DNA from: an uncultured Chthonomonadaceae bacterium
GTDB taxonomy: Bacteria > Armatimonadota > Chthonomonadetes > Chthonomonadales > Chthonomonadaceae
Assembly: GCA_963817895.1 (NCBI GenBank)
Contig: CAWFQB010000014.1
Location: 576,001-640,000 of the forward strand
Length of the DNA: 64,000 bases
Direction of reading: 5' to 3'
Part shown: piece after piece, positions 32,201-41,200 of the stretch
Layout: each line of letters begins with the position of its first letter
Numbering within the stretch: the first letter of the stretch is position 1
Program-made: the position numbers

Positions 32201-35200
32201 CTTCCGCCTGCAAGTCTTGCAGCAGGGTTCGCACCGCGCCCACGAGCATCTCCTGATTGGCCTCATGCCCGCCGAGCGGATACGCCTGCCGCTCCCACGC
32301 CTCCAAATCCATTGCCAGATCGCGTTCGATCTGCTTCCAATCCGCAAACGTTTCACGCCGAAACCGATCCCACAGCAGTTTCAATCCGCGTACCGTATCG
32401 GGCGCAAGGCCGTTCGCGCCCTCCTGCGCCCACTCGGTCAGCGCAAGGGCAACGTCCAAATCCAGAGCGCAGACGGGTTTGAGCGGATCATCGAACTGCC
32501 ATACCATCAGCCGCCTGCCGTTCGTCAGCCAGCCCGCGCGCAATCCCAATCCGCGCAGATACCCGGACAATTGGGCTAAATGGCTTTCCGGGTCATTCGG
32601 ATCAAGCGTCAATTCCAGTCCCGTGCTTTTGTCTTCTATCACGAAACAGGGGCCGAAATCCGGCACCTGCGGCGCGAAGTCCGGGCGTCCGTTCTTGTTG
32701 TTCTGGTTGTACACCTGCTCACCCGGCGCAAAGCCGAGTAAACTCAGCAGCGGGCCGACAATGGCATTATCCACAACAGACGCTTCATCGCCACCGCGTT
32801 TGGGCGCGGGGCGTTGCAGGTAGCGCAGGAAATCACTCCCCTTGAACTGCGGCTGCATAAAGAGCGCGAAAAAGCCTGCCTGAAATTCGTCAAATGTGGA
32901 CATGAGGGACACCTTACCGCGCCGGGGATGTTTGACAGCGCAGGACTATTATATTCAGGCGTCTACGTTTTGTCAATACGCATTCAATAGGCGGTGGGGC
33001 AGGTTGCGGGTACAATACAGGTGGAGGAACCAATTGCCATGAAAGCGCGACGATGGTTACTGATGCTGACGCTGATTTTCGCAGCAGTCGGGGCGTGTGG
33101 ACTGTGGGTATGGCAGGCAAAGCGGCAGTACGCGCTCAATCGCCAACTCATTGCCGCTCTAGTTCACAACGACAGCAAACAGGCGCTTACCCTCGTCAAT
33201 ATGGGAGCCGACCCGAACACGCGCTACGCCCCGCCGCCTTCTCCTACTTTGAAACTGCTGCTCAACCAACTGCTGCTGCACCGTTCCTCTGTACCTGCCG
33301 ATGACAGTTCTACGGCATTCATGTTCGTTTGTAGCGCGGCATGGTACGGAGCAGGCAACCACATCAGGATTAGTTTCAACTCGCCGGAAGACATACCTCT
33401 GGTTCGAGCTATGCTTATACATGGCGCGGACTGTAAGGCAACCGCCTCACAACAAAACTGGTCTGCTCTGCATTGCGCCGTTTGGAAGGGCCGCCCGCAG
33501 ACGGTTCAACTGCTGCTGGAACACGGCGCGAACATTAACCAACAGGATATTTTGGGCATGACGCCGCTGATGCAATCTGTGATGCCCAATCGTGGGGATA
33601 TGACGCGCCTGCTGTTAGATCATGGCGCAAGTGTCTCTATTGAGACGCGCAGTGGGGATAGCGCTTTACATATGGCCGTATGGTATGAAATTGACAAGAG
33701 CATCATTCGTCAGCTTCTAGCGCATGGAGCCAACCCAAACCTTGCAGACAAAAAGGGAGAAACTCCCCTCCTGCTTGCGCAAAAGCAAAGCCATTCTGAC
33801 ATTGTGAAATTGCTGTGGCGAAAACGGTAGCCTCTACCCTCATCCGGCCTCCGGCCACCTTCTCCCTGCAAGGGAGAAGGCTAAACTGCTCATCTGGCGC
33901 GTTGGTTATGGGGTTGTTTCAGGCGTAGAATTTTCTTCTTTATACGCTTGCTTATTCCCTGTTGAACCGCCCATTGAACAATTTAGCCTTCTCCCTTGCA
34001 GGGAGAAGGTGGCCGGAGGCCGGATGAGGGTAGAAACCCCCAACTATTTCCCCAAAAACGCCCTGAACATACTTCTAAAAACGCCGCCCAATGTTAATAT
34101 AACGTTGCTTGCCTAAACCGAATACCGTCCCCACTAACAAGGGAGGGAGGTGCAAAAAGATGCCGATTTACATCCGCCCGCCCTGACGCGCCCGAGGTCA
34201 CGACGCCTCTTCTTAAAAACTAGACACAACGAGACCGAGTGCTGAAAGCGCTGCATTGCCACTATTTCGACAACGTCTCTACATATTTCTCTCCCTCACC
34301 TATCGAATTCCAGCAGCCAGTGGTCAGGGAATGCGCCATCATAGACGATCTGCCCGTCCGTTTCACCTCGGCGCAGGTTGGTTTTGCGCAGCAGGCTTTT
34401 GGCTGTGCCGGGAATGACGATGTGGGCGATATGCTTCCCGAAACACGTATGTTGACCGGCCCCGAAGTGGATGTAATCCGCGTAGGGACGACCGGCATTG
34501 AAAGCATCGGGATCGGGGAACTTGTCTTCATCGAACATGGCTGAGGTGGTGCCGACAATAACCAGCGTACCCTTGTGAATCAGGCGTTCGCGGGTTGTTC
34601 CCTGTGCCACAACCGTATCCTGTTCGCAGTGCCGCAGCAGGAACGGATTTTGCGGGTTGAAGCGCAGCGCCTCGAACACATACGCGGCGACAGTCGCGTC
34701 GTCATCGGCAAGCGCGGCCTGATGCGCGAGGGCAAGGGCGTCCGGGCGATCCAGCAGTTGATCCAACGCCTGCGTAATGGCTTTGGAATTGGTGTCTACC
34801 GTGCCGACAATCGTGCCGCCCAGTATCCGGCGAATGGTATCATCGTCCACGCTGCCGGGCTGTTCGTTTTCCATTTTCAGCAGGCGGCTGAGAAAATCGT
34901 CATGGCGTTCAGGGTTGGCGAGGACATCGGTTTTGAGCGACGCGATGCGCGCGTTCAGATAGGCGTTCAAGTCTGCCGCATCGGCAACCGCCTGTTCGCG
35001 CATCCCCGTATCGTTGCCCAGATTCAGGAAAATATCGCGGAAGATAGAGCGCATCCAGCGCATCTGCGTGGCCTCGTCCGGCCCCGGCATTCCAAAGTAG
35101 CCGGCGACAAGGCGCGACGGCACAACGCGGGAAAGCTGTCCCACCGCGTCTATGCGCCCTTCCGAAGCCACCGTTGCCACCAATGTATCCGCCGTTTGCG

Positions 35201-38200: not shown

Positions 38201-41200
38201 GTTCGCCAGCAGATATTGCTTCAGTCGCGCCGGCGCGCCGTCCGTTCCAACCGCAAAGCCCTCGCAATGGGCGTAAATCTGCCGCAGTCCTTCGGGCGCA
38301 AGAGTGACAAACTCCTCCAGATGCGCGTCTATTGTGCCGTCGAAATTGGTTTCCCACACGAGGCAGGGCGCGAAATTCGTGTCCCGCTTCAGCACCACCC
38401 AACAGGTGAAGTGCAGCGTTTGAAATTTGGGGAACGGAATCAGGGAGTTGCCCTGAATATCCCCGCCGATGCTGTCCAGCAATGTTTCCAGCGCGTCCAC
38501 TTCGCCTGCTTTGATGCGCGTGACCACACTGAGCGCGTTTTGCGCCATAATGTCCTCCTGACGCGATGCAAAAAGCCAACGCTCCATACAACGTTTCGGT
38601 CTAACTCTTTCGTAGCATATTGTTCTGTAAAGAATACCTGTATTCCTTTGTCCTGTATGTAACTTTCGTAACATTTTCGCCGTTAATTGCGCCACTTGTA
38701 TCCAAACTGCCGTTTGACTTTGCGTGTCGCTTCGGCCTATAATAGTGTATCTACTTCTGTGCCGCCTTCAGGAACAGCCCGTCATGCCCTGTCACCCATT
38801 TCGTCAACTAAGTAGACCGAGGGCTAAAGTTCGTAGATTCTACATCTCGAAAAACTACGAACTTAGTCCGATGCCCGCCTTAGTCATTCTGCTTTTCCTT
38901 TTTATTTTGCTTCCGCCTGCAAAGGCGTATGTGCCGACTTCCGCGTACAAGCCCCGGCAGATGGAAGGGTTTACCGTTCTGGTCAATCCTGAACTGGAAA
39001 CCCATGCGGAGGAGGCGAAAGCGGCGTTTCAGGAACTGACGGCGCAGTTGAAGGCTATCAATGGCGTTGTGCCGGATAAGCCGCTGAACGCCCTGCACAA
39101 AGTAAAAATCTGGCTGGAATGGGAGAACCGCAAGGATGGGGCGGCGGAGTTTCACCCCTCCGCGCAATGGCTGCGGGAACACGGCTACAATCCCGACAAA
39201 GCGGGTTGCGTGGAGATTTCCAATGCGGCCCACTTCGTACAATGGTCCCATAACGAACAGCCCTGGATGCTGCTGCACGAGATGGCGCATAGCTATCGCT
39301 TTCTGACGCTCGGCGATAAATTTACGGGCGTACAGGAGGCGTATGCGCAGGCGATGCGCGACAAACTCTATGATTCGGTCGCGTATGTTCACGGAACCGA
39401 CAGGCGCAAAGCCTACGCCGCCACCAACGCGGAAGAGTATTTCGCGGAGTTGTCGGAAGCCTACTTCGGCAAAAACGATTTTTACCCGTTTGTCCGCGAG
39501 GAGTTGGAGCGGCACGATCCCACAGGTTACAAACTCATGGTTCAGGTTTCGGGCAAGCCGAAATCTTCGTCCCGAATTGAAGATGTACCCGTACCTGTTT
39601 TCAATAACAACGAACAAAAGAGCAAACCACACTTATGACTCAACCGACACCATGGAAAGGCGTATTTCCCGCCGCCACAACCCAATTGAAAGCCGACCAA
39701 TCCCTTGATCTGGACGCCACAGCGCGGCATCTGGAAATTCTCATTCAGTCCGGCGTTCACGGCATTGTGATGTGCGGTTCACTCGGCGAGAACCAGACGC
39801 TTTTGCCGGAAGAGAAGCGCGACGTGATGCGAATGGCGATTTCCGCAGTGGATAAGCGCGTTCCCGTTCTGAGCGGCGTGGCCGAAAATTCTACATCTGC
39901 CGCCTGCGCTTACGTCAAAGACATGGAGAGGATGGGCGCGGATGGCGTGATGGTACTGCCCGCAATGGTGTACAAAGCGGATGCGCGGGAAACCGCCGCC
40001 CACTTCCGCGCCGTCGCCGCTTCCACATCCCTGCCCATTATTGTCTACAACAATCCTATCGGCTATCACGTAGACGTGACGCCCGCGATGTTCGCGGAAC
40101 TGGCGGAAGTGGAAAACCTTGTCGCCATTAAAGAATCGTCCGCCGACACAACCCGCATTACTGAATTGTTCAACACGGTCGGGGATCGTTACGCGATTTT
40201 CGGCGGCGTGGACACGCTTGCGTTGGAATGTACGATGCTTGGCGCGGTCGGCTGGATTGCGGGAGTGGGGCTGGCATTCCCCCGCGAAAACGCCCGTTTG
40301 TGGGAGTTGATGATGGCCGGGGAATGGGAACAGGCGCGAACCTTATGGCGCTGGTTCCTGCCCCTGATGACGCTCGACATCGGCCCCCATTTCGTGCAGA
40401 AGATCAAACTGGCCTTGCAGGAGGTTGGCATGGGGCAGGAGTGGGTACGCGCCCCTCGTCTGCCGCTTGCGGGCGCGGAGCGCGAATCGGTGTTGAAACT
40501 TATTCGGGCTGGTATTGAGACACGGCCTTTGTCTTGAACCCGGATTTTCAGGATTAACGGATTTCAGGATTTCAGGGCGCAAGATTACCGATTTCACGAT
40601 TAATGGGCAGTGAGCCATCCTGTTCATCCAGTAATCCTGAAAATCCGGGTTCAAGACAAAAATACCCTTTATGAACAGAGTCACTGTAATAGATTCACAT
40701 ACGGGCGGGGAGCCGACGCGGGTTGTTGTCAATGGTGCGCCGGAGTTGGGCAACGGCAGCGTTGCGGAACAGTTGCGCATGTTTCAAACGCGGTTTGACC
40801 ACTTCCGCGCCGCCGTTGTCAATGAGCCGCGCGGTTCCGATGTGCTGGTGGGCGCGTTGCTCGTCGAGTCTCAGGAACCGGATTGCGTGACGGGCGTGAT
40901 TTTCTTCAACAACGTCGGCTATTTGGGCATGTGTGGACATGGAACCATTGGCCTTGTGGTTACGCTGGCACATTTGGGGCGAATTTCTCCCGGCAAACAC
41001 CGCATTGAAACCCCGGTTGGCATTGTCACGGCGACGTTGCACGAGGCAGGCGACGTTTCGGTTCAGAATGTGCCTGCGTATCGTCATGCAAAGGGCGTGA
41101 GCGCGTCGGTTGAAGGTATAGGAACCCTGCGCGGCGATGTGGCGTGGGGCGGCAACTGGTTTTTTCTGGTCGAGGAACACGGACAGGAATTAAACCTGCG

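Follow-up and report, generated by a model that had tools for sequence, protein, structure and literature searches.

A subunit of tandem ABM fold, a dye-decolorizing peroxidase (DyP) and a swappable haem enzyme constitute a new architecture that, by membership tests, fits no described system. It is represented here by a two-gene operon on the minus strand of a 64,000-nucleotide window (the whole stretch of DNA analysed) from an uncultured Chthonomonadaceae bacterium, in which a 419-aa tandem ABM-fold protein is followed by a 1003-aa DyP-P450 fusion. The conserved core is the ABM-fold partner together with a class C/V DyP, rather than the two-haem fusion. The novelty lies in this architecture: each domain, taken singly, comes from a known superfamily, and the reactions may turn out to resemble those of oxylipin pathways already described. 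On its own the DyP-P450 fusion would be a lesser finding, some homologs already carrying both names in the databases, as the initial annotation had remarked of automatic 'P450/Dyp' labels. What DyPs act on in nature is an acknowledged open question (PMC10820274), and class C/V DyPs, which are much-studied biocatalysts, may have been assayed minus a subunit, because the partner family (more than 4,000 clusters) is a near-constant companion and a predicted binder. The literature searched on the DyP-P450 fusion, DyP gene neighbourhoods and the Deinococcus genes, which consisted of main texts with few from subscription journals, describes neither the fusion nor its partner nor their operon, in agreement with what had been reported before, and oleate hydratase combined with DyP and catalase yielded no paper; a term search within PMC13234801 and PMC13188919 likewise returned neither P450 nor operon.

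The operon and its ABM-fold partner

The partner gene (37289..38548, minus strand, as are all features below) is preceded by an AGGAGG ribosome-binding site (38554..38559) located 5 nt 5' of its ATG, and the fusion gene (34296..37307) starts within its final 19 nt, giving an overlap of 19 nt between the two ORFs; fusion and overlapping upstream gene are thus present as initially annotated. A promoter and terminator scan gave a result at chance level.

The partner matches no family at E 0.1 in Pfam or at E 1 in NCBIfam, and this absence, like the earlier figure of 1,646 near-length homologs, was reproduced; the family counts 4,219 clusters at 50% identity. Searched by sequence against solved structures it yields just a helix match at E 0.68, and ESM Atlas offers unnamed clusters only (scores 0.91-0.93). 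Its model (pLDDT 93.5) consists of ferredoxin-like repeats packed as a barrel, bearing out the proposed tandem ABM fold, and each half finds the profile of the other (E 3.5e-15 and 1.8e-22). The best fold is WhiE-ORFI (Foldseek E 8.6e-6; VIA Z 15.8, rmsd 4.2 A, 224 residues aligned); Abx(+)O is also among the best, and Z values of 15.8 and 12.5 are the top two, above the remaining rows. While the partner thus shares the tandem ferredoxin-like barrel with ABM proteins such as WhiE-ORFI, Abx(+)O, IsdG and SnoaB, it differs from them in its identity of only 7-12% to the WhiE-ORFI and Abx(+)O-type folds, in the lack of a profile match, in extra helices and a hydrophobic hairpin, in its own H-F-x-R-W and N-x-D-G motifs, and in its near-constant DyP linkage.

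Repeat 1 (residues 1-190; 37979..38548) conserves H46 (371/377) and D70 (373/379), and repeat 2 (residues 225-419; 37292..37876) contains the near-invariant H302-F-A-R305-W306 and S319-N320-x-D322-G323 motifs along with W325, Y328, F332 and Y382, the counts being 382/384 for H302, 382/383 for Y328 and 383/383 for F332. One His is retained in 225 of 235 repeats and sits on a strand in the model; no aromatic residue is invariant across all 235. Between the repeats the model places a kinked hydrophobic helical hairpin (residues 189-234; 37847..37984), and a hydrophobic 19-mer is found in 304 of 307 tandem partners, suggesting that the hairpin may be a monotopic membrane anchor. Single-domain partners, judged by eye, have no comparable hairpin.

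The DyP domain and its linkage to the partner

The DyP domain of the fusion (residues 16-486; 35850..37262) scores below the Pfam cut-offs for DyP_N and Dyp_perox_C and, at 84 bits, under the 100.5 cut-off of TIGR01413. Its best solved relative is 8RE3/8RE2 (E 4e-59), with class D and Alr1585/DyP2 next, and the haem residues D189, proximal H346 and distal R374 are kept in 299/303, 303/303 and 303/303 homologs, so that by residues and sequence relationships it is a class C/V DyP with predicted peroxidase activity. The P450 residues E879, R882 and C955 are in turn kept in 162/162 sequences. The conservation of both sets, previously noted in fewer proteins, holds in these larger collections, and judged by these residues both haem sites of the fusion are intact. 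Trp418 (36054..36056) aligns with Trp377 of Auricularia DyP, a catalytic surface Trp (PMC4357238); it is kept in 296/303 homologs, and also in DyPs that have no partner. The P448-x-x-P451-x-R hairpin looks better kept in partner-linked DyPs, the partner-less comparison comprising five rows, which are too few. With the known members of the class (DrDyP 8RE2/8RE3, Alr1585, DyP2 and the fungal class D) the domain shares the fold, the GxxDG Asp, the proximal His, the distal Arg and the surface Trp. Those proteins, however, have been the subject of single-protein studies, with no partner or operon mentioned in the literature searched, whereas the DyP of the window shares its chain with a P450 and has a predicted binding partner.

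Of 130 partner loci, 125 have an adjacent, co-oriented DyP; of the other five, three have one within about 1 kb and two lie at a contig edge. Conversely, the partner stands beside 18/20 Pseudomonadota and 11/13 Actinomycetota DyP loci (29/33 overall), with none in the 1.5-kb flanks of the remaining 4/33. The second DyP of this genome has no partner, and 3/20 metagenome partner loci with room on both sides have no DyP. The sampled loci are not independent of one another. A complex of DyP and partner, predicted with two haems included, has an ipSAE of 0.81 against 0.00 for the best of three controls; the mark used is reached by 116/157 solved complexes and 2/215 mismatched pairs, counts that apply here only roughly. 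The runs share at least 86% of contacts, with a partner pLDDT of at least 82. The predicted interface involves DyP residues 408-429, which flank Trp418 (itself absent from the listed contacts), and D322-S324 and 387-395 of the partner. The partner is predicted to dock next to this surface-radical Trp, and is probably a dedicated DyP subunit.

The same arrangement includes a characterised enzyme: the gene of Deinococcus DrDyP (DR_A0145) begins 1 nt after a partner-family gene and belongs to a partner-DyP-catalase-like operon. DrDyP on its own is inactive at neutral pH, and its authors offered control by other proteins as a speculation; the enzyme produced alone in E. coli contains haem (PMC10820274). 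The catalase-like DR_A0146 is reported to be without catalase activity (review PMC6300522), and both DR_A0145 and DR_A0146 increase after UVC/vacuum (PMC5731708).

An interchangeable third component

The initial annotation had proposed a conserved three-component oxidative module. A conserved oxidative module in several fusion orders does stand, but its composition varies and its core lies elsewhere than in the two-haem fusion: of 130 loci, 54 have a P450 in the third slot, 14 a catalase-like protein, 62 neither and none both (5.8 expected if independent), leaving 76/130 without a P450. The P450 is also missing in 80/80 metagenome loci of the single-domain partner clade, and two DyPs bear an Lcp/MpaB domain instead. 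Among the 70 labelled rows of the DyP tree, the identity of the third component changes at least six times. With the fusion as its query, the earlier search did not bring out the catalase-like and Lcp alternatives or the single-domain partners, nor did it show the lipid genes considered below or the connection with the characterised DyP of Deinococcus. Its composition of the best 120 homologs was matched exactly (39 DyP-P450, 73 P450-partner-DyP, 2 partner-DyP and 6 other), while the best 120 long partner homologs comprise 75 partner-DyP proteins without P450, 13 P450-partner-DyP and 23 partner-DyP with an extra domain of about 335 aa, which is a short catalase-like domain where Pfam names it.

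In the window the third component is a P450 (residues 570-1003; 34296..35600; PF00067 above cut-off at E 1.8e-21) with the I-helix G-T-V-D838-T839, E879-x-x-R882 and the haem ligand C955 (34443-34445). It is joined to the DyP by an Ala/Thr/Pro/Gln low-complexity linker with short direct repeats (residues 487-569; 35601..35849). An assembly error was rejected as the origin of the fusion, since separate database entries, 91% and 75% identical, are fused as well. In the nearest relatives DyP and P450 are encoded as two genes, linkers differ among DyP-P450 fusions, and an internal AGGAGG at the linker end (35602-35607) precedes Met570-Met571, a Met there matching the P450 start of the relatives. 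By its sequence, the join is a loose operon fusion with a retained putative internal ribosome site.

The acid-alcohol pair of the module P450s (n=162) is PT in 103, DT in 43, ET in 7, EP in 4 and PQ in 3, and P-T persists in 19/44 after thinning to 60% identity. Module P450s thus often lack the O2-activating acid; that of the window has a normal D-T pair, its Thr839 being kept in 153/162. Some module proteins have a GST fused to the P450. At the 55 loci covered by a crude motif scan, run without a positive control, no small ORF with a ferredoxin motif lies within 6 kb; bacterial P450s are able to borrow distant ferredoxins. Among solved structures the P450 profile best matches CYP134-type enzymes (CypX; 7OW9, 3NC3; E 1e-42), whose E-P I-helix resembles that of four module P450s. 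This match barely beats generic bacterial P450s (E 5e-40) and is far under any NCBIfam cut-off, and no cyclodipeptide synthase was seen near the module, unlike the CYP134-type context.

The catalase-like proteins all retain the distal His, proximal Tyr and Arg (38/38 each), with the distal Asn in just 9/38. A Thr before the distal His is a hallmark of catalase-related allene oxide synthases (AOS). A test for chemistry of this type by the Thr-His pair, seen as T66/H67 in coral cAOS (PMC5617202), gave a negative result in the module proteins, in which the preceding residue is Ala in 28, Ile in 6, Gln in 2, Thr in 1 and Val in 1 (n=38).

Predicted function and competing explanations

Lipid genes mark a minority of loci. 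Patatin occurs at 9/130 (four from Archangium, two of these nine probably on the same contig), that is in six lineages against about one locus expected. Epoxide hydrolase is found at two loci (L281 and L249), and oleate hydratase, a thioesterase and 3-hydroxyacyl-CoA dehydrogenase are further neighbours. A lipoxygenase lies directly 5' of the module and co-oriented at one locus (L261; 1/210 overall). By Pfam annotation no lipid gene adjoins the module of the window. Four of five module-bearing genomes, this one (81% complete) included, yielded neither a lipoxygenase nor a COX-like peroxidase, so that a known source of hydroperoxide is usually missing.

Known hydroperoxide pathways provide precedents, with P450s and catalase-related proteins substituting for each other (PMC13049297, PMC5617202). 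Fungal DOX-CYP enzymes (LDS, EAS, AOS; PpoA-type) also join a haem peroxidase-type domain to a following P450 in one chain, with apparently no reductase nearby and, in most members of the module family, a comparably non-canonical I-helix; the module V-P-T recalls the (V/A)PxT of 9S-AOS as a loose likeness only. Thr at the distal I-helix position occurs in 8R/9R-AOS too and hence does not discriminate hydroperoxide-isomerase P450s (PMC13049297). Unlike in DOX-CYP, the module peroxidase is a DyP and not COX-like (PF03098, An_peroxidase, was not found in this genome, and the N-terminus of the fusion is a DyP), an ABM-fold subunit is the fixed companion, NQxQ is absent and the activity is predicted. 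The LOX-cAOS/cHPL fusions and the Nostoc pair of 10S-DOX and catalase-related lyase resemble the module in having a short catalase-like protein in the place of the P450 and, at one locus, a lipoxygenase ahead; they differ from it in that the module shows Thr-His in 1/38, the distal Asn in 9/38 and the lipoxygenase at only 1/210 loci.

We tentatively favour, at somewhat less than even chances, a membrane-associated, peroxide-driven processing of fatty-acid hydroperoxides, the substrate being predicted. The fixed complex of ABM-fold partner and class C/V DyP would be held at the membrane by the hydrophobic hairpin, and the His-lined barrel would bind a fatty acid or its hydroperoxide and hand it to the DyP, or switch the DyP on. 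The third haem enzyme (the P450 here, elsewhere a catalase-like or Lcp/MpaB protein) would operate without a reductase and, by rearrangement or reduction, turn the hydroperoxide into epoxy, hydroxy or keto acids, either to detoxify it or as signals. In the window, the fusion would be no special two-haem machine but an operon read-through holding the parts together.

It is unlikely, though less so than the readings below, that the substrates which the module oxidises are aromatic or quinoid small molecules (lignin-derived compounds, anthrones or polyketide-like metabolites), with the partner as an ABM oxygenase, cyclase or decarboxylase that needs no cofactor, the DyP coupling or oxidising its product, and the P450 a conventional or peroxygenase-type hydroxylase. 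The partner's closest folds, polyketide ABM/SchA-like WhiE-ORFI and decarboxylase Abx(+)O, the D-T pair of the window's P450 and GMC oxidoreductases flanking two loci as possible H2O2 sources agree with this, as does the oxidation of phenolics and anthraquinone dyes in vitro by DyPs of the class (PMC10820274, PMC4357238). A shared fold at such low identity nevertheless proves no function, the neighbours scanned include no recurrent polyketide synthase or aromatic ring-cleavage gene, and the membrane hairpin and lipid genes are left unexplained. There is a small chance that the partner-DyP pair is a fatty-acid dioxygenase of a new, two-subunit kind feeding interchangeable hydroperoxide-rearranging P450 or catalase-like enzymes: a peroxide-activated DyP would pass a radical from Trp418 to a conserved Tyr/Trp of the partner, a fatty acid lying in the barrel would have a hydrogen abstracted and take up O2, and the third enzyme would rearrange the resulting hydroperoxide. 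The pair does take the dioxygenase's place beside self-sufficient P450s and catalase-related lyases (PMC13049297), known dioxygenases were not found in 4/5 genomes, the predicted interface flanks Trp418, Y328, W325, W306 and Y382 are near-invariant, and neighbouring patatin and thioesterase would provide free fatty acid. Against it, the lipoxygenase at L261 would render a second dioxygenase redundant, no aromatic residue is invariant in all 235 repeats, and the literature searched offers no precedent of a DyP dioxygenase. If true, it would reveal a widespread bacterial oxylipin pathway from parts unrelated to lipoxygenase/COX and supply the missing physiological role of class C/V DyPs.

Rather improbable, too, is a partner acting as haem chaperone, haem store or regulator of DyP activity within a general oxidative-stress unit of no specific substrate. 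The one His in 225/235 repeats and the haem character of all third components fit this, but the His lies on a strand, unlike the IsdG/OxdA haem ligands, which are on a helix or loop, and a P450 in the same slot poorly fits general stress defence. Haem binding is described as frequent in ferredoxin-like barrels (PMC4835899), hemA lies 5' of the module at one locus and fur-katG near another, and the Deinococcus pair responds to UVC/vacuum (PMC5731708); yet DrDyP made alone already has haem (PMC10820274) and DR_A0146 is reportedly no catalase (PMC6300522). Very unlikely is the strict form of the initial proposal, a machine that needs all three parts and whose fusion couples both haems directly. 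DyP-P450 fusions with unlike linkers and the triple fusions of Alphaproteobacteria do indicate strong functional coupling; the slot, however, is frequently without a P450, invariably so in the single-domain-clade metagenome loci, the domain order varies, the closest relatives have two genes, and the linker of the window keeps its internal ribosome site.

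The partner and DyP as the conserved core

An ORF check bore out that the two genes named in the initial annotation are real and lie where it had placed them: the gene for the partner, a 419-aa tandem ABM-fold protein with an AGGAGG site, occupies 37289-38548 on the minus strand, and that for the 1003-aa fusion of a class C/V dye-decolorizing peroxidase (DyP) with a P450 follows on the same strand at 34296-37307, its start overlapping the partner gene by 19 nt. Within the fusion, the DyP (residues 16-486) is followed by a low-complexity linker and then by the P450. Domain mapping of the best 120 homologs returned the same counts as before (39 DyP-P450, 73 P450-partner-DyP, 2 partner-DyP and 6 other), and the haem ligands of both DyP and P450 are conserved, again as claimed. 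The partner indeed lacks a named family (0 Pfam or NCBIfam matches) and belongs to a family of 4,219 clusters at 50% identity; the fold proposed for it also stands, with a confident model (pLDDT 93.5) of two ferredoxin-like repeats and WhiE-ORFI as the nearest structure (VIA Z 15.8, rmsd 4.2, 224 aligned).

Searching from the partner shows that the conserved core is partner plus DyP. Among the best 120 long partner homologs, 75 are partner-DyP, 23 partner-DyP with a further domain of ~335 aa, and 13 P450-partner-DyP; in 33 selected proteins this extra domain is a catalase where Pfam scores, and Pfam further detects Lcp/MpaB fused to two of the DyPs and GST carried by two of the P450 fusions. 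We assembled 130 partner loci, close kin among them, from the best 80 of 524 genome hits, 16 of 47 plasmid hits and 34 phylum-sample regions: a same-strand DyP is adjacent in 125, and of the remaining five, three have a DyP no more than ~1 kb away and two are cut off by the end of the contig. For the single-domain clade, a DyP is visible at 49 of 80 further metagenome loci, mostly on short contigs, and at 17 of the 20 that have 1.5 kb of flanking sequence in each direction. In the reverse test, where the DyP domain was searched in the same genome samples at E 1e-20 (three loci being omitted that belong to the two seed genomes and to an unpublished genome, G173, on which no claim depends), the partner adjoins the DyP in 18/20 Pseudomonadota and 11/13 Actinomycetota loci, proportions biased toward finding the partner by a query from the partner-linked clade. 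The partner itself takes the form of a single domain, of two or three genes side by side, or of a tandem repeat, and its distribution is patchy (6/151 genomes in the phylum of the window, 19/401 in the Pseudomonadota sample). The genome of the window also encodes a second, class C-like DyP without a partner (contig C2:364271-365875), a stand-alone Lcp/MpaB-like gene (C1:1554609-1555889) and an ABA4-like gene (C3:481534-482007), whose likely ortholog adjoins the partner in the closest relative (locus L001).

A predicted complex of the DyP domain and the partner, with an alignment for each and two haems included, supports the binding of the partner to the DyP: ipSAE is 0.81, three controls reach 0.00 at best, the runs share at least 86% of contacts, and the pLDDT of the partner is at least 82. 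The score mark is met by 116/157 solved complexes and 2/215 mismatched pairs, counts that apply only roughly here. A search against solved structures found no sequence relative of the partner, which makes recall of a similar complex unlikely. The predicted interface involves the conserved D322-G323-S324 and residues 387-395 of the partner, and residues 357-369, 408-429 and 448-457 of the DyP (full-length numbering). Trp418 falls within the 408-429 stretch and, as counted in the alignment, matches Trp377 of Auricularia DyP, described as a catalytic surface radical (PMC4357238); Trp418 itself is absent from the listed contacts and is also conserved in partner-less DyPs.

In the literature searched, with subscription papers and supplements outside its scope, neither the partner family nor the operon nor the fusion is described; automatic database labels naming P450 and DyP together already exist. 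What is robustly new is that a large family without a name adjoins class C/V DyPs almost constantly and is their predicted subunit, the third haem enzyme being swappable. This brings the question of what DyPs do physiologically within reach of a direct test.

The swappable third slot

On the same strand and within 700 nt, the third slot holds a P450 at 54 of the 130 loci, a short catalase-like protein at 14, both at 0 and neither at 62; independence, which kinship violates, would predict 5.8 loci with both. A FastTree of 117 DyP domains (18 near-duplicate loci omitted, 70 rows labelled) implies at least six slot changes. The fusion in the window is loose: DyP and P450 are two separate genes at six loci of Armatimonadota, among them the closest one, at 86% DyP identity, where the DyP is also frameshifted; the window linker ends with an AGGAGG before Met570/571, which corresponds to the P450 start of the two-gene loci; and other DyP-P450 fusions have dissimilar linkers. 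A strict two-haem machine is accordingly a reading to which we give very little credence.

The P450s of the module make up a group by themselves, close to no solved structure or named family. Their acid-alcohol pair (n=162) is PT in 103, DT in 43, ET in 7, EP in 4, PQ in 3 and other in 2, the window P450 keeping DT; a crude motif scan of 55 loci detected no ferredoxin up to 6 kb away. The catalase-like proteins (n=38) retain His and Tyr in 38/38, the distal Asn in 9/38 and Thr-His in 1/38. In one clade (L091, L095, L147, L249, L251, L253, L256, L257, L286) the DyP or the partner is followed by a DUF4331-SRPBCC protein, in most cases along with a TPR gene; this protein, which has a lipid-binding fold, is a possible further occupant of the slot. 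In Bacteroidota (L035, L044, L066, L070) a 200-aa family without a Pfam match comes after the DyP and shows a weak match to P0202, in which the partner-DyP chain has an additional domain at its N-terminus.

Substrate clues and competing readings

Between the repeats of 304/307 tandem partners lies a hydrophobic segment, modelled as a kinked helical hairpin, which would serve as a monotopic anchor. Lipid genes recur near the module across unrelated lineages: a patatin lies within 4 kb at 9/130 loci by our own profile and at one more by Pfam, in six lineages in all, against ~1.1 loci expected by chance (28 patatin genes in 32.4 Mb of five genomes). Other neighbours among the 130 loci include oleate hydratase (2), thioesterase (3), 3-hydroxyacyl-CoA dehydrogenase (4), ABA4-like (10) and GST (4). 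In the metagenome set, where the scan covers 64/121 neighbours, L261 has a lipoxygenase directly upstream in the same orientation, and L281 and L249 have epoxide hydrolases. On plasmids (L084, L093 and other hits) catalase-like/partner/DyP genes travel with TetR, thioesterase, 3-hydroxyacyl-CoA dehydrogenase and oleate hydratase as a mobile fatty-acid cassette, near-identical in different genera and with IS elements nearby.

We tentatively favor, as the best reading, that the module processes fatty-acid hydroperoxides. Its grounds are that a P450 and a catalase-like protein, exactly the two folds used in known oxylipin systems, replace each other in one slot, that the signature of O2 activation is weak, and that a membrane hairpin and neighbouring lipid genes are present; whatever follows binding we infer. 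In those known systems a hydroperoxide is rearranged by a reductase-free P450 (fungal DOX-CYP, CYP74) or a catalase-related protein (coral cAOS/cHPL, Nostoc lyase) (PMC13049297, PMC5617202, PMC11719350). The module is a member of neither DOX-CYP nor LOX-cAOS, being at best alike in its workings. Against the best reading, there is no lipid gene at most loci or in this window, and neither a lipoxygenase nor a COX-like peroxidase was found in 4/5 genomes tested. That the module oxidises aromatic or quinoid compounds instead strikes us as unlikely, and that partner and DyP together constitute a new dioxygenase as rather improbable.

The remaining reading, of the partner as a haem chaperone or the operon as a general stress unit, we doubt to a similar degree. 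A characterised member of the module occurs in Deinococcus radiodurans. Its gene order is TetR, 3-hydroxyacyl-CoA dehydrogenase, partner (probably DR_A0144, going by gene order), DyP and a catalase-family gene, and the DyP is DrDyP, since it does not differ from 8RE2 anywhere in the compared stretch. DrDyP is reported to be inactive at neutral pH, its authors speculating that other proteins govern it (PMC10820274), DR_A0146 is without catalase activity according to a review (PMC6300522), and the DyP and catalase-family proteins rise after UVC/vacuum (PMC5731708).

Neighbouring genes and the window surroundings

In several lineages, the module is flanked by large kinase/AAA_16/GAF/cyclase sensors or by adenylate-cyclase-TPR genes, in many cases accompanied by a CRP regulator (L040, L050, L052, L055 and kin; L016 and kin; L083, L088, L089, L156-L159; L091, L222, L254, L256), with 25 loci in one neighbour cluster and 8 in another against an uncontrolled background; from these, the module product may be a signal.

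Just downstream of the operon in the window, a 67-nt inverted repeat pair (33833-34034, 93% complementary) has 47 matches of at least 35 nt on six contigs of the same genome and is a REP/MITE-like element, which may also terminate the operon transcript. Further along, a minus-strand gene (29145-32912) encodes a 1255-aa fused restriction-modification protein (N6 methylase, Eco57I, TaqI_C). On the plus strand, 39635-46128 encodes, by Pfam, DHDPS-family, proline racemase-family, FAD oxidase, FAH-family, DinB and aldehyde dehydrogenase proteins, and so resembles a hydroxyproline catabolic cluster; no recurrence of it was noted at the other loci of the module. Divergent from the operon, a plus-strand gene (38871-39638) encodes a zincin-type protein that looks secreted and whose Peptidase_M90/ATLF matches are only weak, falling short of the cut-off, and a strong sigma-70-like site (11/12) at 38714-38743 is directed toward it.
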